Under the pieces are notes generated by a model. It did no database searches, was not told the origin of the DNA, and saw only the letters and a list, made by a program, of their open reading frames with translations. From Smithella sp. PtaU1.Bin162 (GTDB lineage: Bacteria > Desulfobacterota > Syntrophia > Syntrophales > Smithellaceae), in NCBI GenBank assembly GCA_002068015.1, contig MVRV01000029.1, positions 24,373 to 88,372 on the forward strand: a stretch of 64,000 bases of DNA. Direction: 5' to 3'. This document shows, one piece after another, positions 12,790-62,558 of this stretch (its first letter is position 1; every line of letters starts with the position of its first letter). A program made the position numbers and the translations under genes.

Positions 12790-12791
12790 GA

Positions 12792-13634: not shown

Positions 13635-13636
13635 AC

Positions 13637-27497: not shown

Positions 27498-28550
27498 CTA
27501 TAATCCCCAGTAGGGATTAATCTTGCGGACAACCTTTTTTATGACATTGCTCGCATCTTCATTTTTTACCTGTTCCAGAGCCGAAAGTTCCTCTTCGGCA
27601 AAGCAGGTTTCATCCGACATCTCCTGTAAAACGGTTTTTGCCGACCCGGTTAGCCCCCGCACATTATAGCCGCCTTCCAGTACGGCTACCAGCCGTCCGC
27701 AGCAGCAATGATCAGCAATAGTAAGCAAAATGCGCGTGAGCGCTGCAAAACCTTCCGGCGTTACCCGCATGCTCCCCAGCGGATCCTGAAAATAAATATC
27801 AAATCCGGCAGATACAAGTACCAGTTCCGGTTTAAATTCCTCGGCCACCGGGACTAAAATCCGGCGGAATATTTTCACAAAGGCATCATCTCCGGCGCCA
27901 CCCTGTAGCGGAACATTTATCGTATAACCTTTTCCTTTACCACGGCCAATTTCATCCAGAGCCCCCGTACCCGGATAATACGGATACTGATGAGTCGAAA
28001 AATACAAAATTCGCGGATCATCATAAAAACTGTGCTGGGTACCGTTACCATGATGCAAATCCCAGTCCACAATCAGCACTTTTTTCATACCGTACTTTAA
28101 AACGGCATGCATGGCCCCTATGGCGACATTATTAAAAATGCAAAAACCGGCAGCAGAACCGCGTTCCGCATGATGCCCGGGTGGCCGGACAAAAGCAAAA
28201 GCATTATCCACGCTACCGGACATAACAGCGTCAATCGAATTACACACCCCGCCTGCAGCCAGCTTCGCTATCGCATATGTTTCCGGACCGGTTGCCGTAT
28301 CCGGATCAAGCATAACGCAGTCCTGGCCTGCGGTACCGGCAACAAAATCAATATAGGCAGTAGAATGAATCGTCGCTATTTCCGCATGTGTGGCTTCGCG
28401 CGGTTCAATTCCCATAAACTTCCGATTCATGGCGGAATTATCCAGCATTGCATAAATTGCCATGAGCCGTTCAGGGCTTTCCGGATGGGCAAAACCGGAT
28501 GAATGACGTAAATACCTATTATCTCTAACAATACCTGTTTTCCCGGACAT
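27498..28550 (-). CDS. histone-deacetylase-family (class II HDAC / acetoin-utilisation AcuC-like) deacetylase
   Basis: 350 aa. RPPGHHAERGSAAGFCIFNNVA, VDWDLHHGNGTQ and VSAGFD (Zn and catalytic residues). Confidence 0.85.
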   Translation of the reverse strand: MSGKTGIVRDNRYLRHSSGFAHPESPERLMAIYAMLDNSAMNRKFMGIEPREATHAEIATIHSTAYIDFVAGTAGQDCVMLDPDTATGPETYAIAKLAAGGVCNSIDAVMSGSVDNAFAFVRPPGHHAERGSAAGFCIFNNVAIGAMHAVLKYGMKKVLIVDWDLHHGNGTQHSFYDDPRILYFSTHQYPYYPGTGALDEIGRGKGKGYTINVPLQGGAGDDAFVKIFRRILVPVAEEFKPELVLVSAGFDIYFQDPLGSMRVTPEGFAALTRILLTIADHCCCGRLVAVLEGGYNVRGLTGSAKTVLQEMSDETCFAEEELSALEQVKNEDASNVIKKVVRKINPYWGL

Positions 28551-44203: not shown

Positions 44204-45010
44204 TTACAGCCGCACCAGTTCCACCTGACCTAAAGTTCGGCCCAAAAAGCGTTCCCCAATCGTTTGAAAACGGTAGGGAAGATCGCTGACGCAAAACAAA
44301 TATTTTGGTGGCCGCCGATCGGCATTCCCTAAATTAAGTTGATTGAGCAAATCAGCCGTTGCTGCAGCCATCGCCTCAGCCGAGTCGATCAGTTTTATTT
44401 TCTTTCCTGCTATCTCCTTTAGTAAAGATTTTAAAAGCGGATAATGAGTGCATCCCAAAACCAAAGAATCAATATGCTCAGCCAATACCGGTTTTAAATA
44501 TTCCTGAGCAATCAGTCGGGTTGCGGGGTGATCAAACCAACCTTCTTCCACCAGCGGCACAAAAAGCGGACAGGCCTGAGAATAAACTTTTGCATCCCGA
44601 TCCAAAAGATGAATCGCCCGGGCATAGGCATTGCTGTTAATTGTGGCCGGAGTACCGATAACGCCGATAGACTTAGTTGTGGTTTCCGAAACGGCATTAC
44701 GGGCACTGGCTTCAATTACTTCCATTACCGGCACCGGAGATAAGTCTTTGATTGCCTGATAAGCTACCGCAGCCATCGTATTGCAGGCTACCACAAGCAT
44801 TTTTACTTCTTTTCTTAAGAGAAATTCGGTAATTTGCAGAGCATAATGATTGATGGTTTCCACCGACTTGATGCCATAGGGCACCCGGGCGGTATCTCCA
44901 AAATAGATGATGTTTTCAAAAGGCAATCGCTCCATGAGGGAACGCACAACCGTGAGTCCGCCAATGCCCGAGTCAAAGACCCCTATTGCCTGATTTGATT
45001 TGATATTCAC
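44204..45010 (-). CDS. murI: glutamate racemase
   Basis: 268 aa. IGVFDSGIGGLTV, catalytic Cys motifs VVACNTMAA and LGCTHYP. GTG start. Confidence 0.95.
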   Translation of the reverse strand: MNIKSNQAIGVFDSGIGGLTVVRSLMERLPFENIIYFGDTARVPYGIKSVETINHYALQITEFLLRKEVKMLVVACNTMAAVAYQAIKDLSPVPVMEVIEASARNAVSETTTKSIGVIGTPATINSNAYARAIHLLDRDAKVYSQACPLFVPLVEEGWFDHPATRLIAQEYLKPVLAEHIDSLVLGCTHYPLLKSLLKEIAGKKIKLIDSAEAMAAATADLLNQLNLGNADRRPPKYLFCVSDLPYRFQTIGERFLGRTLGQVELVRL

Positions 45011-45215
45011 AATTGTTAAACTCGTAAAATATTTAAAACCAATTATTTTAAACGAACTTGTATAATATCCTCCAGGGCATGTGAGTACAGAAGGTGCGCA
45101 AAGGACTTGCCTCTCTTGGTCTGTACCGGAAATGATGAAGCATATTGCACAACGTCACTTGATAAATCAAAGGGCGCTCAAGGTAATGAGCAGCACATGG
45201 AATTTTACAAGATCG

Positions 45216-45917
45216 TCACTCTTTGACGTAAAATTGCAATTTAAGGTTGCCGACCTCTACAATATCACCATCTTTCAGATCATAGCGACGGTCTATTATG
45301 TTACCGTTAATCTTTAATTCCTTGCCGCCAGACGGAGTAATAAAATAACCTTCCTTGCGACGATTAACGAGAGCTGCCATTTTGGGGGCAAAAAAACCTT
45401 TGAGCTTGATGGCGGAACCATCTTCTTTACCAATTGAGGAAACTCTTTCTTTAAGTTCATATTCTTTCTGATCCGTCGATCCGTCAATCACCAGAAAGCC
45501 GCCCAGGGGTTCCGGAATACTCTTATCAGCAGCAGTGATTATCTTTTTCTGATCATCCGGCGATATAACCATTGTTTCATCCATGGAACGGCCACGCACG
45601 GTAAAGCTCTTTTTATCGGCTTCCCTGTTCTTGTCGGAAGTAACATTCAATGTATGCACGCCGATTAATATTATGTCGCCGTTGAAAAGCTCGGCCTTGG
45701 TTATTTTCTGGCTGTTCAAAAAGGTACCGTTAAGGCTGCCCGAATCTTCAAGCATCAACACATTACCTTCCATTTTAATTACAGCATGATGGCCGGATAC
45801 GGCTTGATTATCAATTACAATATCGTTGTCCGGCTTGCGGCCGATAGTTGTTACTTCTTTCTCCAGTACAATCTCTTTGACGGCAGCTTCTTTGTATTTA
45901 AGTAAGACCCTCGCCAT
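45216..45917 (-). CDS. protein with two FHA domains
   Basis: 233 aa. The N-terminal FHA is TTIGRKPDNDIVIDNQAVSGHHAVI...SLNGTFLN. A second, divergent FHA-like domain lies at the C-terminus (VSSIGKEDGSAIKL...LKINGN). Confidence 0.8.
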   Translation of the reverse strand: MARVLLKYKEAAVKEIVLEKEVTTIGRKPDNDIVIDNQAVSGHHAVIKMEGNVLMLEDSGSLNGTFLNSQKITKAELFNGDIILIGVHTLNVTSDKNREADKKSFTVRGRSMDETMVISPDDQKKIITAADKSIPEPLGGFLVIDGSTDQKEYELKERVSSIGKEDGSAIKLKGFFAPKMAALVNRRKEGYFITPSGGKELKINGNIIDRRYDLKDGDIVEVGNLKLQFYVKE

Positions 45918-45921
45918 GTTG

Positions 45922-46716
45922 TCACCTCCGGAAAAATTCCATAAATTTAAACAAAGCAGAATACCATTTTTGCTTCTTGATATAACCTAAAATCACCGTA
46001 ATGTTATCCTTACCACCGTTTTCATTGGCCGTATTAATCAGAGAATCACAGGCGGCGGCAGAGTTCGCGGCAAAAGCGATTATTTCCAAGGCAGCCTCAT
46101 CTGTTACCATATTACTAAGTCCGTCCGTACACAAGAGCAAAATATCATTATCGAACACGGTGAGCTCATCCAAATCGGCTTCCGTTTCCGCGCTGATACC
46201 CAGTGCTTTTGTCAGAATATTCTTTATTTCCGATTTAGCAGCTTCTTCTTTGGTAATCATATCTCGTTTTACCTGTTCACTTACCACGGAATGATCATCG
46301 GTTAACTGGTCGATATTACCGGCGCGAATCAGGTACACGCGGCTATCACCGATATGAGCTATGCTTAATTTGTTACCCGTAAGGAGAACCGCTGCAATGG
46401 TAGTACCCATACCGGTTAATTGCGGAGAACTTTGTGCGGCTTCATAAACAGCCATATTGGCCAGACGTATGGCACAGTTAAGTTTATTCGTGGCTTCGGA
46501 ATAAGCATGGTCATAATCACCGATTATGTTCTGCTGCCCCTGAAAATAATCACGAATGACATTTACCGCCAGGCGACTGGCCGTTTCACCGGAAGCATGA
46601 CCACCCATACCGTCGGCCACAACAAGAAGACCCTGTTTTTCGTCCAGATATAAATTGTCTTCATTATTGGCGCGAACCAAGCCTTGATCGGTTTTACCGC
46701 TGGCAGTTAAATTCAA
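45922..46716 (-). CDS. PP2C-family Ser/Thr protein phosphatase (Stp1-like)
   Basis: 264 aa. RANNEDN, VADGMGGHASGETAS, CTDGLSN and GGKDNITV. TTG start with AAGGAGG upstream. Confidence 0.9.
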   Translation of the reverse strand: MNLTASGKTDQGLVRANNEDNLYLDEKQGLLVVADGMGGHASGETASRLAVNVIRDYFQGQQNIIGDYDHAYSEATNKLNCAIRLANMAVYEAAQSSPQLTGMGTTIAAVLLTGNKLSIAHIGDSRVYLIRAGNIDQLTDDHSVVSEQVKRDMITKEEAAKSEIKNILTKALGISAETEADLDELTVFDNDILLLCTDGLSNMVTDEAALEIIAFAANSAAACDSLINTANENGGKDNITVILGYIKKQKWYSALFKFMEFFRR

Positions 46717-46726
46717 TTAAACCTCC

Positions 46727-49192
46727 TTATTTTAACGAAGCAAGCAAATCATCCGCCAAGGATTTACCATTCTGGTAACGTGCTTCTACATCCTTGGACA
46801 GTAGTTTTTCCACAATTGGTACCAGCTTTTCCGGAATATTGGAAGAAAGTTCCCGAAGGGACGGCGGTGGTGACGATGTTATGTTATACATGAGTGTGGC
46901 AATGCTGTCTCCGTTAAATGGTTTATCGCCGGAAAGAAGTTCATACAAGACAACACCGAGCGAAAACAAATCAGACCGGCCATCTACTTTTTTACCGGCT
47001 ATCTGCTCCGGCGACATGTAACTGGGGGTACCCAGCACTACTCCGGTTTGTGTTTTGGAGGTAGCCATAACACGGGCAATACCGAAATCCGCCACCTTGA
47101 CCTCTCCGCTGTTTAAAACCATAATGTTGGCCGGTTTGATGTCACGATGCACGATACCGTTGGCATGAGCATAATCAAGAGCCCCCGCAACACTGGAGAC
47201 AACCCGAACTACCTCTTCCACAGGAAGGAGGCTTTCTTTTTTACAGTACTTGGCCAAATCAGAACCGTCGAGCAATTCCATGGCCATGTAAGCGATATCA
47301 TAATCCTCGCCGACGTCATAAATGGTAACAATATTCGGATGCGATAATTTTCCGGCCGCTTCCGCTTCCCGGAAAAATCTTTTCTTTACTTCTGCCAGTT
47401 GCTCCGCGTCAATCTCTTCATATCTCAGGGTTTTAATGGCCACTTCGCGGTTAATGCGTGGATCCTTACCAAGGAAAACCGTACCCATAGCGCCGCGTCC
47501 CAGTTCTTTCACAATTTCATAACGCCCCAGTGTCGGTTTTATTCCGGCGTTGTCCATAATCACGGTGGCTTCTTTTTTGGCTCCCGAAAGCCCGAAAATC
47601 ATCGTTTCCCCTGCCGCCGTAAGCTTTTTGATGCGATCTGCTATATCTTTAAAATTTCCCGCCTGATTTATATGTTGATAAACTGCCACCGCTTTGTTGA
47701 ACATCCGTTTTCTTTCAAAATCAAGCCCCAGGTTGTAGAGTAACTCTTTCACGGATTCATCTTCGACAGGACATTTACGGAATTTGTCAAAAGCCATGTC
47801 CAAAAGTCCCTGTCCCTGGAAGGATAATCCGAGCATTTTGTTTGTTTCCACACTGTCCGCCTCAATGCGATCCTTGGTTTTTTCCGTAAGCAGGTACCTT
47901 TTGGAGACTATTATAATATACCCGATAATCAAGATAAGCGCCGGATAAAGCGCTTTGACCCAATAACCGTAAGCGGCAAAAAGATAAATGGTGGTGCCCA
48001 TCCACACAACGAGCAGAACCAAGGATACAATGGCACTGATACCCGCTTTGATCTGCGGAATGACAAGCGCGATGTAAAGACCGAAAACAATAATCATAAT
48101 CAGTTCGAGCGTAACCGCCCAGTCCGGACGTACAAGGTGATCGTCATTGATAATATTTTCGATAACATTGGCAATGATTGTCCCCGGTGCAACATTAACC
48201 GCCGTCGGCGTGACCTGCATTGTACCCAACCCGGCCGCGCTCTGGGCGATAATAACTATTTTATCTTTAAAAACATCCGGGGAAACTTTTTTGTTGATAA
48301 CATCAAAATATGAATAATAAGGAATTCCGGAAGTAAAACTAATCAGCATTTTGTTGTTTTCATATACCGGGATCGTTTTACGGCCGAATTTTATTTCACG
48401 GCCCAGTTGCAGCTTCTGCAAATCCAGATTAAGATATTTCAATGTCAATTGCAGGGCAAAAGAAGGAAAGAGTTTTTCTTCAAAATTAATAAAGAGAGGC
48501 TCGCTGCGCACGGTACCATCGCGATCGGCAATAATGTTAATATGCCCCAATCCCAGGGCTCCTGTTGCAAATTCGGATATGGGAGGAACAATTTCGCGTG
48601 CCGTTATGCTCTCCATACCCGTGGCAGGAAGTGAATTATTCTTCAGATAATCCGGTAGATTCGAGGTGGTTCTGCCGGTAGGATTGCCCGGAACAAAGAA
48701 TAAGGGGAGCACAATATTTTTACCGGCGGTAATGGAATTAGCCAAGATCGTATCATTATCGAGTCGTTTTTCGGATTCTTTCAATGCCGCCAAAACGGTA
48801 TCGAAACCTTTTTGGGCATAATTGGGATTTGTTTCAATATCCTTGATCAGGTTGCGTACTTCGAGGAGACCCTGGTTGAAATCTTTTTCGGAATAAATTA
48901 TATCCAGGCCGATTACTTTTACATTATACGATTGCAGCAGATCGACCATGGAAGCTATGTATCCGCGGGGCCACGGCCAGCGACCTATATTGGCAATGCT
49001 CTGTTCATCAATGGCAATGACAGCAACGGGTGCTTTGGATTGTTGCACCCGCAGATTAGTGCTTAAATCATAAATACCGTTTTCCAGTGTTTCGAGTGGT
49101 CCCCAGGAAATAAAAAAGGCGAACAGCGCAAGTAACGTTAGAACAATGCCGAGAATAAAGTCAGAAATTGTCGACTTTTTAATTTTCTTCAT
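46727..49192 (-). CDS. CHASE2 sensor domain - 3 TM - TPR-like linker - Ser/Thr protein kinase
   Basis: About 821 aa from the ATG at 49192, with AAGGAG upstream. CHASE2 block VAVIAIDEQSIANIGRWPWPRG. Kinase motifs GRGAMGTV, VAIK, HRDIKPANIM, DFGIA and GTPSYMSPE. Confidence 0.85.
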   Translation of the reverse strand: MKKIKKSTISDFILGIVLTLLALFAFFISWGPLETLENGIYDLSTNLRVQQSKAPVAVIAIDEQSIANIGRWPWPRGYIASMVDLLQSYNVKVIGLDIIYSEKDFNQGLLEVRNLIKDIETNPNYAQKGFDTVLAALKESEKRLDNDTILANSITAGKNIVLPLFFVPGNPTGRTTSNLPDYLKNNSLPATGMESITAREIVPPISEFATGALGLGHINIIADRDGTVRSEPLFINFEEKLFPSFALQLTLKYLNLDLQKLQLGREIKFGRKTIPVYENNKMLISFTSGIPYYSYFDVINKKVSPDVFKDKIVIIAQSAAGLGTMQVTPTAVNVAPGTIIANVIENIINDDHLVRPDWAVTLELIMIIVFGLYIALVIPQIKAGISAIVSLVLLVVWMGTTIYLFAAYGYWVKALYPALILIIGYIIIVSKRYLLTEKTKDRIEADSVETNKMLGLSFQGQGLLDMAFDKFRKCPVEDESVKELLYNLGLDFERKRMFNKAVAVYQHINQAGNFKDIADRIKKLTAAGETMIFGLSGAKKEATVIMDNAGIKPTLGRYEIVKELGRGAMGTVFLGKDPRINREVAIKTLRYEEIDAEQLAEVKKRFFREAEAAGKLSHPNIVTIYDVGEDYDIAYMAMELLDGSDLAKYCKKESLLPVEEVVRVVSSVAGALDYAHANGIVHRDIKPANIMVLNSGEVKVADFGIARVMATSKTQTGVVLGTPSYMSPEQIAGKKVDGRSDLFSLGVVLYELLSGDKPFNGDSIATLMYNITSSPPPSLRELSSNIPEKLVPIVEKLLSKDVEARYQNGKSLADDLLASLK

Positions 49193-49315
49193 GTAGACTC
49201 CTTTGCAGGAAAACACATCCAGAGAATATTTGAAAGTAAATATTAATCGTTTTTTTATCATAAGTTATGGGAATATAGCAAGTTTTCTTGTGAAATATTT
49301 TATCGGCGGATAAAA

Positions 49316-50937: not shown

Positions 50938-52203
50938 TCAGGTCCGGAAGGAAGACAGCCCGGCAAAATCCAGAGTGGCAAAATAATCGTCAACCGTTTC
51001 CGCCCGGCGGATCGGAACTACTTTGCCGTCTTCCCTTAACAACAGCTCTGCCGAACGGAGCTTGCCGTTATAATTAAAACCCATGGCATAACCGTGCGCT
51101 CCCGCATCGTGAATGACTATGATATCGCCTCTCTCCAGGAGGGGCAATTTGCGGTCGATCGCAAATTTGTCATTGTTTTCGCAAAGGGAACCGGTCACAT
51201 CGTAGACAACTTCGGCAATTTGATTTTCTTTGCCGGCAACCGTAATGTGGTGGTAAGCACCGTATAATGCCGGGCGCATCAAATTGGCCATACAGGCATC
51301 GAGGCCCGCAAATTTTTTATAGGTATTCTTGATATGGAGAACTCTGGTCACAAGATAGCCGTAAGGCCCTGTGATGTAACGGCCGCATTCCGTATAAAGT
51401 TTGATGGGACCGAGGCCGTTCGCTACGATAATTTTTTCATATTTTTCCTTAATGCCCCGGCTCACGGCATTAATGTCGATACGTTCCTCACCGGGACGGT
51501 AGGGGATTCCTACACCGCCACCGATATTGACAAATTCAAAAGAAATTTTCAGTTTATGAGTCAGTTCGACAATAAGTTTAAACAGAATTTCCGCCGTCTC
51601 TACAAAATAACCGGCGGAAAGTTCGTTGGACGCTACCATGGTATGGATGCCGAACCGTTTGATACCTTTGTCGCGGCAGATTTTATAACCTTCGACCAAC
51701 TGATCATGGGTAAAACCGTATTTGGCTTCTTCCGGATGCCCGATGATCAAGTTGCCTTTTTTTAGTTTTCCGGGATTATAGCGGAAACAAATGAGCTGCG
51801 GCAGGCCCGCATATTCTTCGAGATAAAAAATATGGCTCAAATCATCCAGGTTGATAACCGCCTTTAATTCTTTTGCTTTTAAAAATTCGGCGGCAGGCGT
51901 ATCGTTGGATGTAAACATGATTTCAGCCCCGCTGATACCTGTTTTTTGAACCATGATCAATTCGGCAAGTGAACTGCAATCCGCCCCGAAACCTTCCTTG
52001 TGCAGTATTTTCATTAGATAGGGGTTGGGGGCGGCTTTAACGGCGAAAAATTCTTTAAACCCTTCGTTCCAGGAAAAGGCGTTCTTAAACTCGCGGGCAT
52101 TTTCGCGCATGGCCTTTTCATCATAAAGGTGAAACGGAGTCGGATATTTTTCGATTATTTTTTCCAATTGATCTTTTGTAAAGGGCAGTTTTTTATCTAA
52201 CAC
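50938..52203 (-). CDS. PLP-dependent decarboxylase, Orn/DAP/Arg (group IV) family; diaminopimelate-decarboxylase-like
   Basis: 421 aa. PTPFHLYDE, PLP-Lys in FFAVKAAPNP, NIGGGVGIPY and a late CENND block. GTG start. Assignment as lysA itself is not certain. Confidence 0.7.
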   Translation of the reverse strand: MLDKKLPFTKDQLEKIIEKYPTPFHLYDEKAMRENAREFKNAFSWNEGFKEFFAVKAAPNPYLMKILHKEGFGADCSSLAELIMVQKTGISGAEIMFTSNDTPAAEFLKAKELKAVINLDDLSHIFYLEEYAGLPQLICFRYNPGKLKKGNLIIGHPEEAKYGFTHDQLVEGYKICRDKGIKRFGIHTMVASNELSAGYFVETAEILFKLIVELTHKLKISFEFVNIGGGVGIPYRPGEERIDINAVSRGIKEKYEKIIVANGLGPIKLYTECGRYITGPYGYLVTRVLHIKNTYKKFAGLDACMANLMRPALYGAYHHITVAGKENQIAEVVYDVTGSLCENNDKFAIDRKLPLLERGDIIVIHDAGAHGYAMGFNYNGKLRSAELLLREDGKVVPIRRAETVDDYFATLDFAGLSSFRT

Positions 52204-52252: not shown

Positions 52253-53740
52253 CTATAATTTTTTGGCCATTTTACGGAAATGGTAACCATAAATCATCAA
52301 TGTCATTGCTTCAGAAAAAGATTCCCGGTAAAAAATCAACGATTTCAGCATTAATTTCCAATAATACCACTGAGTAGCGCCATTGCCTAAAATACCAATA
52401 TAAAAAACGGATTTGACGAATGCCCGCATCCGTCGCACCGAATATCTGTTCTTCCGTTTTATCGGTATCGGTTTATATGATTTGAGAAATTCATTGATGC
52501 GCTGATAATAATAACGCGGGCTGTAAATTGTTTTGACGATTTTCTGATAACCTGCAATGAGTTTTGTTTTATCCATTCGTGGAATGAAGTTGATACTACC
52601 GTCTGTATTGTTTCCGGAAGAGTTATCATCCAGACGATTTTCATCTTTCAGGCGATGCCATAATTTTGTATTGGGTAAGGCATTCAAAAGCCCGACCATC
52701 GCTGTTACAACACCGGTTTCCTGAATGAACTTAATCTGTCGGGCAAAAATATTTTCATCATCATTGTCAAAGCCGACAATATATCCTCCGAATACCTGCA
52801 ATCCCCCCGCTTGTAATTTTTTTATCGCAGCAATCATATCGCGTTTGCAGTTCTGATTTTTGGAGCATTCTTTCAAACTTTCCTCGTTGGGTGTTTCGAG
52901 ACCGATAAATATACTGTTAAATCCGGCCTGGGTCATAAGACGAATAAGTTCATCGTCATCGGCGATATTGATGGATGTCTCCGTAAGCAATTCAAAGGGA
53001 TATTGGTGTTTTTTCATCCATGCAACAACCCCGGGCAACATCGTCTTGATAGCCTTTTTGTTGCCGATAAAATTGTCATCTACTATAAATACCGTACCCC
53101 GCCATCCGGTATCATAAATACTTTGCAGCTCGCGCAAAAACTGATCTTCAGTTTTGATGCGCGGATTATGGCCGAAAAGCGACGTAACATCACAAAATTC
53201 ACAGTTGAAGGGGCAGCCCCGGGAAAACTGGATCATTAAATTAGCATAGCATTTGATCCTGGCCAGATCCCAGCGCGGCAACGGAGTGCTGTGCAACGAA
53301 GGAAACTCGCCGGAGCGGTAAACCTTTTGGGCGGCACCCCGGGCCAAATCAGACAAAAACGGCGGCAAGGTACATTCGGCTTCATTTAAAATCAGATGAT
53401 CCACTGAATCATAATAATCCTCGGGCTTTGCAGAAAATAATGGGCCACCCGCAATAACTTTTTTCTTTAATCTCACACATTCCCGAAGAATTTCGTCTAC
53501 GGAATCCTTTTGAATCAACATGGCGCTGATCATTACATAATCAGCCCAGAGCATGTCTTTCTCTCTGAGTTTCTCAATATTCAGGTCCGTAAGGCGGATA
53601 TTCCATTCAGCAGGCAGCATGGCGGCAACTGTGAGCAGGCCGAGCGGCGGAAATGCCGCTTTTTTAGCAATGTACTTCATAACATGCTTGAAGCTCCAGA
53701 AAGTTACCGGATAACGGGGATATATCATTAAAATATTCAT
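52253..53740 (-). CDS. B12-binding-domain radical SAM protein (DUF4070-type C-terminus)
   Basis: 495 aa. N-terminal cobalamin-binding-like region (PPLGLLTVAAML), radical SAM cluster motif CPFNCEFC and a long C-terminal extension. Confidence 0.8.
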   Translation of the reverse strand: MNILMIYPRYPVTFWSFKHVMKYIAKKAAFPPLGLLTVAAMLPAEWNIRLTDLNIEKLREKDMLWADYVMISAMLIQKDSVDEILRECVRLKKKVIAGGPLFSAKPEDYYDSVDHLILNEAECTLPPFLSDLARGAAQKVYRSGEFPSLHSTPLPRWDLARIKCYANLMIQFSRGCPFNCEFCDVTSLFGHNPRIKTEDQFLRELQSIYDTGWRGTVFIVDDNFIGNKKAIKTMLPGVVAWMKKHQYPFELLTETSINIADDDELIRLMTQAGFNSIFIGLETPNEESLKECSKNQNCKRDMIAAIKKLQAGGLQVFGGYIVGFDNDDENIFARQIKFIQETGVVTAMVGLLNALPNTKLWHRLKDENRLDDNSSGNNTDGSINFIPRMDKTKLIAGYQKIVKTIYSPRYYYQRINEFLKSYKPIPIKRKNRYSVRRMRAFVKSVFYIGILGNGATQWYYWKLMLKSLIFYRESFSEAMTLMIYGYHFRKMAKKL

Positions 53741-55528: not shown

Positions 55529-56014
55529 TTATAATGTCTTGGAGTATATAATCTTGCCATCACCGACAGCATAAAAATCTTTCAAAAAAGCTTCCCGAAT
55601 GTAGCCGCAGTGTTCATAAAATTTGTGCGTCACAGAATATTGAAGCCGGGAAGATGTCTCCGCATAAACCCGTCTGCCGCCGCTGTTTTGTATAATAGAT
55701 TCTGTTTCTTGCAACAATTGCTTCCCCCATCCTTGAGCACGCAAACTATTATCCACGGCAATCCAATAAAGGTCATAACTTGCATCCGTAGCGGGAATTA
55801 AACCGAAACACGTATACCCCAACACCAGATCCTTATCTTCTGCAAAAAGGAACTGATAGGAGCTGGTGTGGTCGGTAAGCTTTTCATCGGCAAGTTCTCC
55901 TGCCAAATCAATTTCCGCGGCAGAAAAAAATCCGCTTGATTTGACGATTCTGTCAATGGCATCCAGATCCGATGATTTAATTTGCCTGCGGTATGTTATC
56001 CGGTTAATATTCAT
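55529..56014 (-). CDS. small single-domain GNAT N-acyltransferase
   Basis: 161 aa. Acetyl-CoA binding block IAVDNSLRAQGWGKQLLQETESI and C-terminal FYEHCGY. Confidence 0.8.
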   Translation of the reverse strand: MNINRITYRRQIKSSDLDAIDRIVKSSGFFSAAEIDLAGELADEKLTDHTSSYQFLFAEDKDLVLGYTCFGLIPATDASYDLYWIAVDNSLRAQGWGKQLLQETESIIQNSGGRRVYAETSSRLQYSVTHKFYEHCGYIREAFLKDFYAVGDGKIIYSKTL

Positions 56015-56069
56015 AAATTATTACACCTGAGGCAGTTTATTGTACAAATGAAATCAGCGGAAATACCGA

Positions 56070-57071
56070 TTATCTGAAAGACTTATATCTTTTTAATGCA
56101 TCGTCGACAATCAGTTCTATAGCTTCACAAAATTTCAGGGATGCTTTTTCAACAGCAAACGCAAATCCCGCTTCTAAAGACAGGCATGGGTTGGCATTTA
56201 TCTCCAGAACCCATGGATTGCCGTTTTTATCCACACGGAAATCAACCCGGGCATATCCGTGTAACCCAAAAAGATCCCAACATCGTTTTGCAATATCCTG
56301 TAAACCGGCAATTAATCGATCATCCTGCGAAGAAAAATCCATTGTCCGAGTGGTATTTTCATATTCAAAAGTGCCTTCCACCCACTTGGCACGATAGTCC
56401 AGCAGTTTTAATTTGTCCGGTCCGAATCCGATAAACTGCATTTCAGCGGGGTGAAGTACCTGCACACCGGCCTTGCCGGCAATCAATGCGATATTAAATT
56501 CACGGCCGTCAATGTAAGCTTCGGCAAAACAGGGTCCTCCTATTTGCTTTCTCCGTTTATTCATGAGGGCTACAATGTCAATTTTATCATCAAGATTAAC
56601 AATGGAATTTTCATCGAGACCAACAGATGCATGCTCCCATGAAGCTTTCAATAAATATGTGCTGGAAGGCGCTTCCCCGGTACAAATACCACTTGATGAA
56701 ATCCAGGCAGGAGTGGGAATGCCTGCTTGCGCCATTATTTCTTTAGCCACCGGTTTATTGGAAGTGAGAAAAATTGCATCCGTCCCGCAACCGGTATAAG
56801 GAATATCAAGATGGTCCAAAAGCGCAGGGGCAAAATGGATAAGACTGCCTTTGCCGTTAACTGTTTCCACAAGATTAAAAACGACCTCCGGCCGCAAAGA
56901 GTTAATGGCTTTGATTGTCTGATTCAAGTCAAGAACAAAGGGCAGAAAAACAGGATCGTAACCGAACAGGCGCAATGCTTCGGCAACAGTATCGGCCTGT
57001 CTTAAGCAATCCAACTCATCCTCGCCGGCATCGGGCATAATGTCGCTGTGAAGTATTACAACGTTTTTCAT
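56070..57071 (-). CDS. ATP-grasp ligase, D-alanine--D-alanine ligase family (paralog 2)
   Basis: 333 aa. Pre-ATP-grasp region, central LLKASWEHASVGL and C-terminal GYARVDFRVDKNGNPWVLEINANP (Mg-ATP ligand block E-x-N). Confidence 0.75.
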   Translation of the reverse strand: MKNVVILHSDIMPDAGEDELDCLRQADTVAEALRLFGYDPVFLPFVLDLNQTIKAINSLRPEVVFNLVETVNGKGSLIHFAPALLDHLDIPYTGCGTDAIFLTSNKPVAKEIMAQAGIPTPAWISSSGICTGEAPSSTYLLKASWEHASVGLDENSIVNLDDKIDIVALMNKRRKQIGGPCFAEAYIDGREFNIALIAGKAGVQVLHPAEMQFIGFGPDKLKLLDYRAKWVEGTFEYENTTRTMDFSSQDDRLIAGLQDIAKRCWDLFGLHGYARVDFRVDKNGNPWVLEINANPCLSLEAGFAFAVEKASLKFCEAIELIVDDALKRYKSFR

Positions 57072-57089
57072 TCGAATTCTTCTACAGAT

Positions 57090-58118
57090 TTATTTTTCGG
57101 CTTTCGCTGCTTGTTGCGAATTTGCTTCTATGCGACGGAATGCCGACTTTAACACGGCAGAGATCAATTCATGGTAGGTCATCCCCAGAAGGTTGCACAA
57201 AATAGGCAAATCCGACCGTACGGGGTTTAATCCAGCCAGCGAATTAACTTCCATAAAATTCGGCACACCGTGAGCATCAGAACGCAAATCCACACGACCA
57301 GCATCTTTTAAATCCAAACCACGCCAAGCTGCAAGCGATATTTCCATGGCCTGTCTGGCTTCATCATCATTAACCAGGACATATTGTACCAGCTTGTCAT
57401 AGTTTTCTTTATTTTCATAGGAATAAGCGTTTTTTTCGGCTGTGGGCTTTAATATGACTTCTATTGCACCCAGTGCTTTGGCTTCTTTGCCCGTGCCGAT
57501 AATACCAACGGTAAATTCACGGCCGGGCAGATAAGTTTCAAGCAGTACGGGTTGCCGGAAAGTTTTTAAGAGGTTTGCACAAATCGGCTGTAATTCTTCC
57601 CAGGTGTTTATTTTCGACTGCGCCGTTATTCCCTTTCCCGTTCCTTCGGCAACAGGCTTGGCAAACAAAGGGAAAGGTAATTTAACAGCGGTAATATCTT
57701 CTTCGCTTTTGATGACGGTAAAGGAGGGTGTAGGAATACCTTGATCACGAACAACATGCTTGGTCATGCCCTTGTGCAGAGTAAGGGCGTGACCAAGCGG
57801 GTCAGAAAACGTGTAGGGGATATTATAAGCATCCAGTAGTGCAGGTACTTGCGCTTCGCGGCCGAAACCCGATATACCTTCGGCAATATTAAAAACCATG
57901 TCCCAGCGTTCGCCTGCGGCAAGTTTTCGGGTTAGCGCCCGAATATTGCCAATCCGATCGACCTCGTAACCGTTATCGCGGATAACTTTTTCAATTGCCT
58001 CAATGGTCTCCGGAAGATCCAACTCCGCCGTTTCTTCGTGGGTAAAACCTTCTCTCAAATAGTCATCACGCAAATCATAAGTCATTCCTATTTTAAACTT
58101 GTAAACGGCGGCATTCAA
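57090..58118 (-). CDS. ATP-grasp ligase, D-alanine--D-alanine ligase family (paralog 1)
   Basis: 342 aa. IGMTYDLRDDY N-terminus, FAKPVAEGTGKGI and GRVDLRSDAHGVPNFMEVNSLAGL. TTG start at 58118; an alternative ATG lies at 58085. Confidence 0.75.
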   Translation of the reverse strand: MNAAVYKFKIGMTYDLRDDYLREGFTHEETAELDLPETIEAIEKVIRDNGYEVDRIGNIRALTRKLAAGERWDMVFNIAEGISGFGREAQVPALLDAYNIPYTFSDPLGHALTLHKGMTKHVVRDQGIPTPSFTVIKSEEDITAVKLPFPLFAKPVAEGTGKGITAQSKINTWEELQPICANLLKTFRQPVLLETYLPGREFTVGIIGTGKEAKALGAIEVILKPTAEKNAYSYENKENYDKLVQYVLVNDDEARQAMEISLAAWRGLDLKDAGRVDLRSDAHGVPNFMEVNSLAGLNPVRSDLPILCNLLGMTYHELISAVLKSAFRRIEANSQQAAKAEK

Positions 58119-58143
58119 AATAAAACTCTCTCCTCTTTCTTTA

Positions 58144-59457
58144 CTAATGAATATCTTTTATTTCCGCATGATTATCCGGATAGCGGTAAACATTGCCTTC
58201 ATAATTGCGCATGAGTAAATCACCTTTGTCCCACCCTATAGCATATTCGGGCAGCAAAGGAATTTTGCCTCCTCCACCGGGAGCATCAACGACATAGGTA
58301 GGTACGGCATAACCGGTGGTATGGCCGCGCAAGCCCTGGATAATTTCCAGTCCTTTACTGATTGGGGTGCGGAAATGCGAGGAGCCAGGAATCGGATCGC
58401 ACTGATATAAGTAATAAGGACGCACCCTGATCTGGAGCAAACCGTGAACCAGGCGCGCCATCGTGGAAACTTCATCATTAATCCCGGATAAAAGAACCGT
58501 CTGGCTGCCGAGCGGTATACCGGCATCGGCAAGCCGGATGCAGGCACCGCTCATCTCCGGGGTTAATTCATCCGGATGGGTTACATGAAGGCTCATCCAA
58601 AGGGGATGATATTTTTTCAACATCGCGGTTAGTGCCGGAGTTATCCGTTGCGGTAAAACAACAGGAACTTTGGTGCCGATACGTATCAATTCAACATGAG
58701 GAATTCTGTGCAACCGGGAAAGCAGCCATTCCAGTTTTTCATCCGACAAGGTCAAAGGATCTCCACCGGAAAGAAGCACGTCCCGGACATTGGGGTTATT
58801 AGCAATATATTCGATGGCTTTTTCCCATTTGCCAAGATCAATAAAATGCTGGTTTTTGCGCTCGATAATGCGTGACCGCGTGCAATACCGGCAATAGGTT
58901 GAACAGATATCGGTAACCAGAAACAATACCCGGTCAGGATAACGATGCACTATGCCGGGAACGGGTGAATCATTGTCTTCACCAAGAGGATCTTCTTCCT
59001 CGCCGGCAGTATGTAAACACTCATCCACAACAGGCACAACACATCGGCGCAAAGGCGCGGAAGGATCATGAGCATTAATCAAGCTGGCATAATATGGTGT
59101 TATCGAAACAGGCAATGATCCCGAATGATGCATCATCGCCTGACGTTCATTTTCGGAAAGATTGATCATGCAAGCCAGAGTGTCTACATCTCGAATCGCG
59201 TGGCTGAGCTGCCAATGCCAATCGAACCATTCGAAGCGGGTTACGTCGGGATAAAATCTTTTACGGAAAATTCGCGATCGAGGTGAGTCTTTAAAAGGAA
59301 ATAAAAATCTCTCTGGCTTTTGTTTAGCCGGATATGGCTGGTGGGTTTTTATGTTTAATGAAAAAAAGTCTAAAACTTCATTTTCAATCTTAACAAGACC
59401 GGTGGTCGTATGACCAGGAGGTTCCGCCTCCTCATTAAACAGGGTCTCGTTTTCCAT
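58144..59457 (-). CDS. kamA: lysine 2,3-aminomutase-type radical SAM / PLP enzyme (KamA family)
   Basis: Radical SAM motif CSTYCRYCTRS, then YQCDPIPGSSHFRTPISKGLEIIQGLRGHTTGYAVPTYVVDAPGGGGK, nearly collinear with Clostridium LAM. The ATG at 59457 has AAGGAGGA 5 nt upstream. The track ORF starts 8 codons earlier at 59481. Confidence 0.85.
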   Translation of the reverse strand: MENETLFNEEAEPPGHTTTGLVKIENEVLDFFSLNIKTHQPYPAKQKPERFLFPFKDSPRSRIFRKRFYPDVTRFEWFDWHWQLSHAIRDVDTLACMINLSENERQAMMHHSGSLPVSITPYYASLINAHDPSAPLRRCVVPVVDECLHTAGEEEDPLGEDNDSPVPGIVHRYPDRVLFLVTDICSTYCRYCTRSRIIERKNQHFIDLGKWEKAIEYIANNPNVRDVLLSGGDPLTLSDEKLEWLLSRLHRIPHVELIRIGTKVPVVLPQRITPALTAMLKKYHPLWMSLHVTHPDELTPEMSGACIRLADAGIPLGSQTVLLSGINDEVSTMARLVHGLLQIRVRPYYLYQCDPIPGSSHFRTPISKGLEIIQGLRGHTTGYAVPTYVVDAPGGGGKIPLLPEYAIGWDKGDLLMRNYEGNVYRYPDNHAEIKDIH

Positions 59458-59526
59458 CTTTTCCTCCTTCTGGAAGGCCATACCTTCCCATAAAAATTAT
59501 TTTAAAGAGTAAATCTCTTCAAAGTG

Positions 59527-59554
59527 AATTTACGCGAGCTATAAAATTTGTCAA
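59527..59554 (-). promoter_or_regulatory. candidate sigma70-type promoter for the kamA block
   Basis: The minus strand reads TTGACA (59554-59549), a 16-nt spacer, then TAAATT (59532-59527). By eye only. Confidence 0.3.
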
Positions 59555-60719: not shown

Positions 60720-61172
60720 TCAGCGGGTAAAAAAATAACTCCAACCACGGTCAAAAAACAAAGCAAACACTGATATGGCCATTAGCGCTACATCGCGCAC
60801 CAGATAGAACCAACTGATGCTGCCGGTCAATCCGCCAAAACAGCCGCAGGAAATATCCAACCCCCGCACTAAATTTATCGTAAGGGCAATGGCAAAGACC
60901 AGAAACAGCAGAGCGGCAATAAAGGAAGCTCCTCTCACATAAATACTTACAAGAAGACAAACAGCCAGCAACACTTCCAGATATGGTAAGGTCACGGCAA
61001 GCACGTTAATCGCCCAGTCGGGCAGTAAACGATAATTGTAAATGGCGGTGGCAAATTCCTGAGGAGCAATAATTTTTTCGCATCCGGCATATAGGAAAAC
61101 AGCCGCTACAGTAAGACGGCAAACAAGAGCTACTGCCGGCGTAACAGGACCAGGAAAATTTCTGAGTTTCAT
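60720..61172 (-). CDS. MauE/DoxX-family redox-associated membrane protein
   Basis: About 150 aa from the ATG at 61172, with an ATGA overlap onto the rhodanese stop. Four TM helices and a CGCFGG motif typical of MauE-like proteins. Confidence 0.75.
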   Translation of the reverse strand: MKLRNFPGPVTPAVALVCRLTVAAVFLYAGCEKIIAPQEFATAIYNYRLLPDWAINVLAVTLPYLEVLLAVCLLVSIYVRGASFIAALLFLVFAIALTINLVRGLDISCGCFGGLTGSISWFYLVRDVALMAISVFALFFDRGWSYFFTR

Positions 61173-61690
61173 ATTTGCCCTTTCGTTACCGGATAACCGG
61201 CATTGATCCATAGGTTCCAGCCATCAGCCAAAACTTTTACGACCGGCACCCCATGAGACTGCAACGCCTGCGCTGTTTCCTGGCTTAGAGGGCATTGCAG
61301 TCCATCGCAGTAGGTTACAACTATCGATTCAGCTGAAAGCATCGCTTTTAATTGGGCAAGTCGAAAAGCCACTTCATCCGGGTACATGTTTATTGCGCCT
61401 TTAATATGCCCTTCTTCAAAGCTGAAAGGGTCGCGGGCATCAACAAAAACTACTTTATGTTGCCGATAAAGATTATAAGCTTCCGTAAGCGTTATCTTGG
61501 GAATGTTTGTCCGAATAATTCCGGCTATCTTTGTTGAATCAAAACCAAAAAGAGGAAGACTGGCCTGGCGCAGCTCATTTATGGCAACAGCAATGGTAAC
61601 AGCCATAACTAAAATAACTAAAGACTCCTTTACGATCACATTCAGATTAATCTTATGAGGTTTATCTTTGATTTTGATTATATGCTTCAT
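61169..61690 (-). CDS. membrane-anchored rhodanese-like domain protein
   Basis: 173 aa with an N-terminal TM helix. Rhodanese fold VVFVDARDPFSFEEGHIKGAIN and active-site loop VTYCDGLQCPLS, which has two Cys and no Arg. Confidence 0.75.
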   Translation of the reverse strand: MKHIIKIKDKPHKINLNVIVKESLVILVMAVTIAVAINELRQASLPLFGFDSTKIAGIIRTNIPKITLTEAYNLYRQHKVVFVDARDPFSFEEGHIKGAINMYPDEVAFRLAQLKAMLSAESIVVTYCDGLQCPLSQETAQALQSHGVPVVKVLADGWNLWINAGYPVTKGQI

Positions 61691-61703
61691 ACCGGCAGAA
61701 TAA

Positions 61704-62219
61704 TTATTTTTTCATATCCGGTGGAGGATATGCTTCTATAATCCATTTACGGATGTCACTTTTGGGAGGCACATAACCTGCTGCAACAATTTTGCCATTG
61801 ATAACAAGAGCCGGCAAGCCCATTACCCCATAGCGTGCTATTTCCTGAACCTCGGAGACATGGCGAAGATCAGCCGCTATTCCCATTTCCGATAAGATAT
61901 CCCGAAGATCTGATTCCATCTGTAAACAACGTACACATCCTGTACCCAAAACAGCTATAATTAATCCGGAAGCGGCTGCGGGCTCTACAGGCAAGCCCTG
62001 CACTAATTTAAACTCGCGCAGTAATGCTTTCCCATAAGCATTATAAGCTGCGGCCGGTATATAATTATCAGCGGCTATCGTCTCCAGAAGAAGTGTCTGG
62101 ATTGCAATGTCATCATGACTAGACTGAGATTGCACAGCTTTTTTAATGGCGGCATCGAGACCGACGATTCCTACCAGATGTCCATTAATCATGATTCGTT
62201 TTAGTTCACTCTCCGACAT
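61704..62219 (-). CDS. thioredoxin-fold protein (Thioredoxin_3 / redox-active disulfide protein 2-like C-terminus) with an unassigned N-terminal domain
   Basis: About 171 aa from the ATG at 62219; the track ORF starts at a TTG at 62291. The C-terminal IIAVLGTGCVRCLQM...GVMGLPALVINGKIV has a CxxC in a glutaredoxin-like fold. Confidence 0.65.
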   Translation of the reverse strand: MSESELKRIMINGHLVGIVGLDAAIKKAVQSQSSHDDIAIQTLLLETIAADNYIPAAAYNAYGKALLREFKLVQGLPVEPAAASGLIIAVLGTGCVRCLQMESDLRDILSEMGIAADLRHVSEVQEIARYGVMGLPALVINGKIVAAGYVPPKSDIRKWIIEAYPPPDMKK

Positions 62220-62558
62220 GGCACTCCGAAAAGATGAAAAATCAATAATTGTTGTTTTAGTCAATGTATTGAGTAACTTTATCTTCGTCAAGCAAAAATC
62301 ACTTTTTTACAGGTAATGTTTTTGTGAGCGGTCCGGAAATTGTTTTGCGGCCGGATATACCGGCCAAAGACATGAATTTTATTTCCTTATATACTGGAAA
62401 GCACAATGTTTTCAGCATCATAACTGAAGAAGCCGTTTGCAATCTCCCGCTATCTGTGCTAATGACTTGTAGTCAGTAATTTTATCGTTATTGTCTGGAC
62501 ATACAAAAAGCATCATCATAACAATAAAGTAAAATCTTTCAGGAAAGGTAAAACGAAA

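Follow-up and report, generated by a model that had tools for sequence, protein, structure and literature searches.

A four-gene unit on the minus strand of contig MVRV01000029.1 from Smithella sp. PtaU1.Bin162 may well constitute a biosynthetic operon for a cytoplasmic small molecule based on β-lysine, namely an N-acetylated di- or tri-pseudopeptide, and this reading is held with moderate confidence. The putative β-lysine-derived small-molecule pathway is a combination of known enzyme families that has not been described before. It was found in a stretch of 64,000 nucleotides (positions 24,373 to 88,372 of the contig), which is termed the window here and to which all coordinates refer unless a locus is named. 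The unit consists of a KamA-family lysine 2,3-aminomutase, two divergent ATP-grasp ligases resembling D-alanine-D-alanine ligase (Ddl) and termed AG1 and AG2, and a small acetyltransferase of the GNAT family, which are listed in the order of transcription:

58144 to 59481, minus strand: KamA-family lysine 2,3-aminomutase of 445 amino acids (Pfam Radical_SAM and LAM_C)
57090 to 58118, minus strand: AG1, predicted Ddl-like ATP-grasp amide ligase of 342 amino acids (Pfam Dala_Dala_lig_C only)
56070 to 57071, minus strand: AG2, second, divergent, predicted Ddl-like ATP-grasp amide ligase of 333 amino acids (Pfam Dala_Dala_lig_C only)
55529 to 56014, minus strand: predicted small GNAT acetyltransferase of 161 amino acids (Pfam Acetyltransf_7, Acetyltransf_1 and Acetyltransf_10)

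The six-frame list of open reading frames (ORFs) places the four genes in the same direction with spacers of 25, 18 and 55 nucleotides, as had been stated in an initial annotation made from the DNA alone, and the last gene, described there as a minimal 161-residue GNAT, is assigned to that family by Pfam.

The unit recurs in a wide range of bacteria. A HMMER search with AG1 recovered 679 clusters (50% identity) at E ≤ 1e-30, and a scan of one genome per species over 185,579 species, in which an alignment of ten sequences served as the query, yielded at least 591 AG1 loci confirmed by tblastn, the best 80 of which were examined at the locus level. According to the labels of the depositors, the carriers include many Desulfobacterota (Syntrophales, Desulfobacterales, Desulfobulbales, Desulfatiglans and Desulfacinum), Bacteroidota (L033, L058, L059 and L069), Planctomycetota (L074 and L075), Acidobacteriota and Aminicenantes (L080 and L068), a metagenome-assembled genome (MAG) of Neomarinimicrobiota (L025) and Alphaproteobacteria (L062, L070 and L078, the last from the isolate Virgifigura deserti SYSU D60014). 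The window proteins were then used in tblastn searches of the loci outside Smithellaceae that offered enough flanking sequence. KamA was located directly upstream of AG1 in 58 of 62 such loci, in the same order and on the same strand, AG2 followed AG1 directly in 57 of 59, and the GNAT lay within 4.5 kilobases (kb) downstream in 45 of 50; the complete set of four genes was present in 39 of 47, and the flanking genes differ from lineage to lineage. Co-occurrence as a unit, which the initial annotation had left to be examined across genomes, is thereby borne out, with the order KamA-AG1-AG2-GNAT recurring across phyla and sometimes in fused form. Among the 150 best representatives, 16 AG1-AG2 fusions and two KamA-AG1 fusions were counted, and the KamA-AG1 fusion P0135, with 746 amino acids, combines Radical_SAM, LAM_C and Dala_Dala_lig_C. 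An AG2-GNAT fusion is encoded at L049, and the module genes of Desulfovibrio loci overlap by a few bases.

Reduced versions were observed as well. Two loci of Bacteroidota (L033 and L058) and one of Alphaproteobacteria (L070) carry AG1-AG2-GNAT without an adjacent KamA, AG1 being found at position 8001 in each, and the place of KamA upstream in L033 is taken by sugar-nucleotide genes for a DegT aminotransferase, a GDP-mannose dehydratase and an epimerase. In L056, from a Desulfonema limicola MAG, AG1 stands alone.

The evolutionary histories of the four proteins divide the module in two. In a mirror-tree comparison of the pairwise distance matrices from 48 loci, KamA correlated best with AG1 (r 0.79, partial 0.67) and AG2 with the GNAT (r 0.76, partial 0.61-0.64), and the cross pairs gave partial correlations of 0.18-0.34, with 0.18-0.25 for KamA-GNAT. 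Moreover, AG2 and the GNAT each fall into two variants, which are congruent in 46 of the 48 loci, and KamA and AG1 are unsplit. Because KamA and AG1 co-evolve, as do AG2 and the GNAT, and only the latter pair splits into variants, the module is read as two sub-modules, in which the formation of β-lysine and an invariant first ligation would be followed by a second ligation and an acetylation with lineage-dependent substrate. When ORFs of at least 70 amino acids from 67 loci were clustered, no additional partner conserved across phyla was found, whether target protein, precursor peptide, transporter or Mur/Fem enzyme. Two families of small β-rich proteins of about 85-130 amino acids adjoin the module in about seven Desulfobacterota loci each and were not found across phyla; one is apparently cytoplasmic, and the other, which matches DUF5818 weakly, carries a hydrophobic segment at its N-terminus (L032:5889-6587, L040:6282-6590, L043:6315-6617, L044:2595-2951, L081:11785-12491 and others).

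The first enzyme matches the lysine 2,3-aminomutase of Clostridium subterminale (PDB 2A5H) with 456 bits and an E value of 1.8e-135 over residues 74-435. In 2A5H, Asp293 and Asp330 bind the ε-ammonium group of lysine, Arg134 binds the carboxylate and Lys337 binds pyridoxal 5'-phosphate (PLP). Ruzicka and Frey are said to have found the equivalents of Asp293 and Asp330 replaced in glutamate 2,3-aminomutases. The motifs CSTYCRYC, YQCDPIPG and VVDAPGGGGK, from which the initial annotation had read the radical-SAM signature and the apparent retention of both lysine-binding Asp residues, align as it supposed to Cys125/129/132, Asp293, Asp330 and Lys337 of 2A5H. When 2A5H was aligned with the window protein and with 57 orthologs linked to the module in other genomes, C125/C129/C132, Arg134, Asp293, Asp330 and Lys337 proved to be kept in 58 of 58 module KamAs. 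Among NCBIfam models, the highest score was reached with the AblA/lysine 2,3-aminomutase equivalog TIGR03820 (499.2, just under the cut-off of 525.4), and the KamA subfamily TIGR00238 was passed (363.7 versus 199.2). The protein remained below the cut-offs of the models for glutamate 2,3-aminomutase (421 versus 650), arginine 2,3-aminomutase (394 versus 600) and the EpmB equivalog (261 versus 369.3). Since the 2A5H residues are kept and NCBIfam ranks AblA at the top, β-lysine is predicted with good confidence to be the product, which supports the choice made in the initial annotation. The identity of a glutamate or arginine 2,3-aminomutase was rejected on account of the scores below the equivalog cut-offs and the retained lysine-type Asp293 and Asp330. 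EpmB, against whose model the enzyme had also been proposed to be placed, was rejected for its low score together with the neighbouring fpg and ligase genes, no efp or epmA being seen in the window.

AG1 and AG2 had been described as two only distantly related members of the Ddl family, and this holds, for they share about 25% identity in tblastn cross-matches, each contains Dala_Dala_lig_C, and their nearest solved structures and curated families in PDB and NCBIfam searches are Ddl enzymes. Their scores against the NCBIfam Ddl model PRK01372 are 152.8 for AG1 and 103 for AG2, versus a cut-off of 243, and the Ddl N-terminal domain PF01820 was not detected by Pfam in either protein. The active-site residues were compared in an alignment of Escherichia coli DdlB, whose sequence was matched to 1IOV, with 63 AG1 and 51 AG2 sequences, among them those of the window. 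The DdlB set for ATP, Mg and acyl-phosphate (K97, K144, E180, E187, K215, R255, D257, E270 and N272) is kept at about 100% in both groups, and both ligases appear catalytically intact. At the substrate positions of Ddl, S150 is replaced by Thr in AG1 and Y216 by Glu, with some variation; at the D-Ala2 site of AG1, Ser281 is kept as Ser302 and L282 is exchanged for an invariant Asp303. The pocket of AG2 is altered in a different way, with Ala for S150, an invariant Trp230 for Y216, an invariant Cys296 for G276, mostly Ala for S281 and Gly for L282. The N-terminal 60 residues, in which the position of Glu15 lies, align ambiguously to DdlB, and in AG1 this region harbors an insertion rich in conserved acidic residues. 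AG1 is the most conserved ligase of the module, with 55-66% identity between phyla.

A locus of a close relative (L004), whose proteins are 79-86% identical to those of the window, carries a separate full-length Ddl with PF01820 about 6 kb from the module, and tblastn of DdlB on the 64-kb window matched AG1 and AG2 only. Because the substrate triad Glu15/Ser150/Tyr216 is lost, the N-terminal domain is undetected, the scores lie below the cut-off and L004 has its own Ddl, the genes are not regarded as housekeeping ddl. Judged by their sequences, AG1 and AG2 are not D-Ala-D-Ala ligases, and the idea that they might be ddl orthologs with intact D-Ala-binding residues, which the initial annotation had put forward as a possible objection, is not sustained. 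In the source annotations, the module proteins are called 'D-alanine-D-alanine ligase' or 'RimI-like', and NCBIfam (June 2026) names AG1 and AG2 only as a generic Ddl subfamily and holds no specific family for them. A related family of tandem double ATP-grasp proteins with 560-725 amino acids (P0156, P0159, P0177, P0183 and about 13 more representatives) was encountered in addition, both halves of which are Ddl-like and the C-terminal half of which is 35-38% identical to AG1; these proteins exceed the cut-off of the generic NCBIfam Ddl subfamily, yet they are clearly not ordinary Ddl.

The translated GNAT contains the motif RAQGWG, which fits the acetyl-CoA-binding pattern Q/RxxGxG/A. Over residues 5-158 it matches PDB 2R7H with an E value of 6.2e-38 and about 45% identity, on which basis it is judged to be the ortholog of that protein. 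The entry is entitled 'putative D-alanine N-acetyltransferase of GNAT family'; it is a structural-genomics entry for which no functional test is known, and the name seems to have been given solely on account of the gene neighbourhood. The 2R7H protein is 99% identical to P0398, and on the contigs that carry it, whose nearest named relatives are Oleidesulfovibrio/Desulfovibrio, the gene order is sigma-54 activator, KamA, AG1, AG2 and GNAT. The source strain of 2R7H is presumably D. desulfuricans/alaskensis G20. The NCBIfam matches of the window GNAT at E ≤ 0.001 comprise only RimI (38.8 versus a cut-off of 86.4) and PRK03624 (21.4 versus 124), and no β-lysine acetyltransferase family is among them.

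An accessory gene of some loci provides a hint toward the nature of the product. A protein of about 590 amino acids, in which a GNAT-like N-terminal domain is fused to a domain of the histone deacetylase (HDAC) family, is encoded at ten scan loci (L026, L030, L034, L041, L046, L051, L052, L064, L071 and L072) and in the complete D. mangrovi genome (L087), where it is situated between AG2 and the GNAT in one module variant and follows the GNAT in the second. Two of these genes are given here:

L087, 9629 to 11386, plus strand: GNAT-HDAC fusion gene with GNAT-like and HDAC-family domains
L041, 9768 to 11774: GNAT-HDAC fusion gene, an example from the scan loci

The HDAC domain is nearest to the acetylpolyamine amidohydrolases 9GKZ, 6PHR and 3Q9B (E 4e-66 to 1e-63), and its matches to single-domain protein deacetylases are far weaker (about 1e-33). 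This proximity favours a small N-acetylated aminoalkyl compound as the substrate of the accessory deacetylase and, by extension, as the product of the module. We know of no characterised enzyme with the GNAT-HDAC architecture, and NCBIfam holds no specific family for the GNAT-HDAC, AG1-AG2 or KamA-AG1 fusions. The window itself encodes a stand-alone homolog of HDAC6-like class IIb deacetylases with 350 amino acids (27498 to 28550, minus strand; E 1e-72 to HDAC6 catalytic domains); its likeness to HDAC6 and an identity of only 28% with the fusion protein of the module led to its rejection as a module deacetylase.

Regulatory signals were recognised most clearly in the relatives. Upstream of KamA, the 2R7H-type contigs contain the sigma-54 promoter TGGCATGGCAGTTGCT and two GGAAC-N5-GTTCC palindromes; a palindrome or a sigma-54 promoter also lies 5' of KamA in seven further Desulfobacterota loci (L021, L023, L029, L036, L039, L055 and L081), and D. 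mangrovi (L087) has a sigma-54 promoter at this place. The regions in question, together with the promoter candidate of the window, are as follows:

L085, 5300 to 5500: sigma-54 -24/-12 promoter and palindrome region 5' of KamA
L087, 5293 to 5569: sigma-54 -24/-12 promoter region 5' of KamA
Window, 59527 to 59554, minus strand: candidate sigma-70-type promoter 5' of KamA, TTGACA-16 nt-TAAATT (consensus match 10/12)

A gene for a sigma-54 enhancer-binding protein precedes the module in Desulfovibrionales and some other Desulfobacterota. This activator gene and the palindromes look like a dedicated regulator-operator pair, which points to a dedicated sigma-54 control of the operon in Desulfovibrionales. 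Unlike the Desulfovibrio loci, the 64-kb window contains neither a sigma-54 promoter nor a GGAAC-N5-GTTCC site. The promoter proposed for it in the initial annotation, read from 59554 to 59527, is the top consensus match within 53.5-60 kb, but 15 promoter-like matches were found in that interval versus 14.2 expected, so that the site can be kept only as a candidate. No terminator-like site was seen in any of the three intergenic gaps, and the operon is credited with no lysine riboswitch, as an Rfam scan of the window revealed no riboswitch or RNA family. As for the gene starts, Met9 of KamA at 59457 is preceded by a perfect AAGGAGG and would give a protein of 437 amino acids, compared with 435-438 in homologs, and is the likelier true start. 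The majority of AG1 homologs begin about eight residues downstream of the TTG at 58118.

Taken together, the favoured pathway would proceed as follows. KamA would convert L-lysine into β-lysine (3,6-diaminohexanoate) by radical-SAM/PLP chemistry, after which AG1 would form the first ATP-dependent amide bond involving β-lysine by way of an acyl phosphate, the intermediate also used by Ddl. The retention of Ser302 at the position of Ddl Ser281 and the invariant Asp303 in place of Leu282 hint, weakly, at an amino acid that bears a cationic side chain as the nucleophile of AG1, for instance β-lysine itself. A second amide bond would be contributed by AG2, whose pocket is unlike that of AG1 and occurs in two variants; the third building block therefore probably varies with the lineage. 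Finally, an amine left free would be acetylated by the GNAT; the terminal N6 aminopropyl group of the β-lysine moiety is the likeliest site, because the accessory deacetylase of some loci is of the acetylpolyamine-amidohydrolase type. The predicted N-acetylated β-lysine di- or tri-pseudopeptide would be kept in the cytoplasm and would stand functionally between N-ε-acetyl-β-lysine and N-acetylglutaminylglutamine amide (NAGGN). The sequence of making, ATP-dependent ligation and N-acylation of β-lysine, already outlined in the initial annotation, thus remains the best-supported interpretation of the locus. A stress-protective solute or a polyamine-like metabolite is the most likely role, and this is the least certain part of the proposal. 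The carriers include inhabitants of freshwater and the Desulfovibrionales operon seems to be under sigma-54 control; both facts suggest a function that is conditional and not governed by salt alone.

Several points weigh against this interpretation. The GNAT is missing in 5 of 50 loci and an adjacent KamA in 4 of 62. Besides marine sites, the record titles of the carriers name fens, peat, lakes and groundwater, which is a misfit for a purely salt-driven osmolyte. An identity of about 60% across phyla is unusually high for a small-molecule ligase, and AG1 could alternatively owe it to a macromolecular substrate or to recent horizontal spread. The pocket arguments depend on a single DdlB alignment that is ambiguous in the N-terminal 60 residues, and the AlphaFold2 models, for which the homologs in the input alignments were all at least 59% identical, are too weak for an analysis of the pockets (mean predicted local distance difference test scores of 54.7 for AG1 and 64.5 for AG2). 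The scheme's ligation partners, step order and site of acetylation are all predictions.

Some of the evidence would also accommodate ligases that act iteratively, in which case AG1 and AG2 would assemble a short cationic oligo- or polyamide without a template, either from β-lysine only or from β-lysine in alternation with another residue. Such a product would be an analogue of cyanophycin or of the β-lysine chains of streptothricin that is made without a nonribosomal peptide synthetase (NRPS), and acetylation and deacetylation would set its charge or toxicity. Ligases with unlike pockets are fused in 16 clusters, the invariant Asp303 is placed in the nucleophile site of AG1, the GNAT is paired with a polyamine-type deacetylase in some loci, and small GNATs that acetylate β-lysine residues are known from streptothricin resistance. 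The non-Ddl matches of AG1 include the ATP-grasp domain of cyanophycin synthetase (E about 1e-9), but this likeness covers only some 100 residues in the ATP-grasp core that such enzymes share, and the module is accompanied by no conserved genes for primer binding, granule association, hydrolysis or export. The sequence does not separate one-shot from iterative ligation, and the polymer is considered unlikely; if it were true, it would represent a third route to such polyamides besides NRPS-like synthetases and cyanophycin synthetase. Post-translational modification of a protein, in the form of a β-lysyl or peptide tag on elongation factor P (EF-P), a ribosomal protein or another target, would explain the very strong conservation of AG1 and could draw on RimI as the top NCBIfam match of the GNAT, weak as that match is (38.8 bits versus 86). 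β-Lysine is used on EF-P in γ-proteobacteria, and HDAC-family enzymes can act on proteins too. Nevertheless, no candidate target gene is conserved beside the module across phyla, and the ligases resemble Ddl, which joins free amino acids, rather than RimK, TTL or EpmA. The accessory deacetylase is likewise nearest to acetylpolyamine amidohydrolases, which act on small molecules, and the operon's own sigma-54 control in Desulfovibrio speaks for use under certain conditions rather than for a housekeeping role, all of which makes a protein substrate distinctly improbable.

The module might otherwise be a plain osmolyte pair like AblA/AblB, accompanied by ATP-grasp genes of unrelated function such as the synthesis of D-amino-acid dipeptides. 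AblA is the model on which KamA scores highest, a GNAT is present, and metagenome papers routinely call such syntroph kamA genes ablA. This notion is nonetheless hard to reconcile with the position of the ligases between KamA and the GNAT, which is kept across phyla, with the KamA-AG1, AG1-AG2 and AG2-GNAT fusions, with the co-evolution of the GNAT with AG2 (partial 0.61-0.64) and not with KamA (0.18-0.25), and with an NCBIfam result for the GNAT restricted to RimI and PRK03624 without a β-lysine acetyltransferase family; it is rated just as improbable as a protein tag. An envelope precursor, that is, a β-lysine side branch of peptidoglycan or a surface polymer comparable with the product of the enterococcal ATP-grasp D-aspartate ligase, is slightly less probable still. 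The membership of the ligases in the Ddl family and the plausibility of a cationic substituent as an envelope modification, an idea already raised in the initial annotation, are set against the loss of the D-Ala-binding residues of Ddl, the apparent solubility of all four proteins and the failure to find any Mur, Fem, flippase, transferase or membrane protein conserved with the module. It is very improbable, finally, that the locus is a cluster for a RiPP (a peptide that ribosomes synthesise and that is modified after translation) of the graspetide type, or a part of lysine fermentation. Two ATP-grasp ligases and a GNAT superficially resemble the gene content of a microviridin cluster, and KamA is the first enzyme of lysine fermentation. 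However, no small ORF is conserved across phyla (ORFs of at least 70 amino acids, 67 loci), the ligases are of the Ddl rather than the RimK/graspetide type, the residues for binding free lysine are retained in KamA, and no β-lysine 5,6-aminomutase or other fermentation genes occur in the loci examined.

The pathway favoured here, leading to an acetylated β-lysine pseudopeptide, shares features with several known systems and coincides with none of them. Like AblA/AblB, whose first enzyme belongs to the same clade, it would begin with a lysine 2,3-aminomutase, end with an acetyl-CoA-dependent GNAT and yield a cytoplasmic β-lysine derivative; in contrast with that pathway, which has no ligases, two obligatorily linked ATP-grasp ligases are inserted, the GNAT is minimal (161 amino acids) and matches no β-lysine acetyltransferase family, and KamA scores 499 versus the AblA cut-off of 525. 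NAGGN is said, in work of Sagot et al. from 2010, to be made by Ngg, a bifunctional GNAT and ATP-grasp protein, and AsnO. It is thus likewise an N-acetylated dipeptide solute made by a GNAT and an ATP-grasp enzyme without ribosome or NRPS, an arrangement mirrored by the AG2-GNAT fusion of L049 and by the co-evolution of these two proteins. This analogy was drawn at the level of enzyme families, and the NAGGN system differs in that the ATP-grasp part of Ngg is not known to be Ddl-like and that an amidotransferase takes the place of the aminomutase, the β-amino acid and the second ligase. In pyrrolysine biosynthesis, PylB rearranges lysine to 3-methyl-D-ornithine, and the Ddl-related PylC joins its carboxylate to the amine of a second lysine. 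The succession of a radical-SAM lysine rearrangement and a Ddl-related ATP-grasp ligase is common to both pathways, whereas PylB is not known to belong to the KamA family and is accompanied by one ligase and the dehydrogenase PylD without a GNAT; PylC was absent from the 35 PDB matches of AG1 at E ≤ 0.001 and from the top 60 matches found with the AG1 profile. The Ddl/VanA enzymes, as the nearest structures and families, share the ATP-grasp fold and the full ATP, Mg and acyl-phosphate residues with AG1 and AG2, which differ in the undetected N-terminal domain, the lost substrate triad and the exchange of Leu282 for Asp (AG1) or Gly (AG2). In the EpmB/EpmA system, a KamA-family aminomutase also supplies β-lysine for attachment through an amide; the module aminomutase is instead KamA/AblA-like, the ligases are ATP-grasp enzymes and not a lysyl-tRNA-synthetase paralog, and neither efp nor epmA is nearby. 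The closest likeness of all is that of 2R7H, the ortholog of the window GNAT, which is encoded in the same four-gene operon on the Oleidesulfovibrio/Desulfovibrio-like contigs.

The initial annotation knew of no characterised pathway for the block, and this assessment stands: no description was found in the open-access literature (subscription journals lay largely outside the search), there is no curated NCBIfam family, and the presumed G20 locus tags (Dde_3044 for the 2R7H gene, about Dde_3040-3044 for the operon) are not mentioned in the open-access literature. Four outcomes that would speak against a new pathway had been named there beforehand, namely an aminomutase of the EpmB clade with epmA or efp nearby, ATP-grasp genes that are the ddl orthologs, a lack of conserved co-occurrence, and a prior assignment in the literature; all four were tested, and none occurred.

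The remainder of the window, whose best matches place the organism in Smithellaceae (Syntrophales, Desulfobacterota), is ordinary chromosome with hisD, prfA, prmC, rho, gatA/gatB, ilv genes, a class A penicillin-binding protein and a type I restriction-modification system. In the 64 kb, neither a canonical ddl nor any mur, fts, efp or epmA gene came to light, in agreement with the earlier remark on mur and fts, and PADLOC models gave no match for any of the four module proteins at E ≤ 0.01. According to tblastn across the loci, the neighbours fpg, PhoU_div/PHO4, lysA and a B12-radical-SAM gene are common only to Syntrophales and are therefore treated as synteny outside the module; lysA, PhoU_div/PHO4 and the downstream B12-radical-SAM gene had been considered as module members and were rejected for the same reason. 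The lysA homolog and the B12-binding radical-SAM protein (50938 to 52203 and 52253 to 53740, both on the minus strand) show some peculiarities. The former, a diaminopimelate decarboxylase homolog that lies 3' of the module in Syntrophales only, barely exceeds the lysA equivalog cut-off (300.4 versus 297.9). The latter, which contains DUF4070 and belongs to no specific family, is located between the lysA homolog and the phosphate transporter, and its gene is present in the window and L004 and not in Smithella loci. Beyond fpg, a trio composed of a Thioredoxin_3-domain protein (Pfam) and two small ORFs (60720 to 62291, minus strand) keeps its synteny in Smithellaceae, and the syntenic counterparts of the two small ORFs in L004 are annotated as a rhodanese and a MauE/DoxX-like membrane protein. 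The restriction-modification system is complete (10163 to 16612, plus strand), with HsdM, HsdS, a Bro-N domain protein and HsdR between prmC and prfA. A signalling cluster (44204 to 49261, minus strand) contains a CHASE2-domain Ser/Thr protein kinase of 844 amino acids, a PP2C phosphatase and an FHA-domain protein, and is followed by a gene of the Asp/Glu racemase family.

β-Lysine is known from few settings only, as an osmolyte of archaea and bacteria, as the modification of EF-P, from lysine fermentation and from NRPS antibiotics. If the proposed pathway is true, a further β-lysine route would be added that is neither ribosomal nor NRPS-based and proceeds via stand-alone ATP-grasp ligases. 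The module is carried by anaerobes in hundreds of species-level genomes, among them syntrophs and sulfate reducers that matter in digesters, sediments and peat, and the kamA genes in MAGs of syntrophs should not automatically be taken for ablA osmolyte genes. Thousands of 'D-alanine--D-alanine ligase' entries, together with one 'putative D-alanine N-acetyltransferase' in the PDB, are shown by the module to carry misleading names. The pathway is open to experiment, as the crystal structure of one component is available (2R7H) and mapped transposon mutants exist for G20, to which the 2R7H contigs are attributed.

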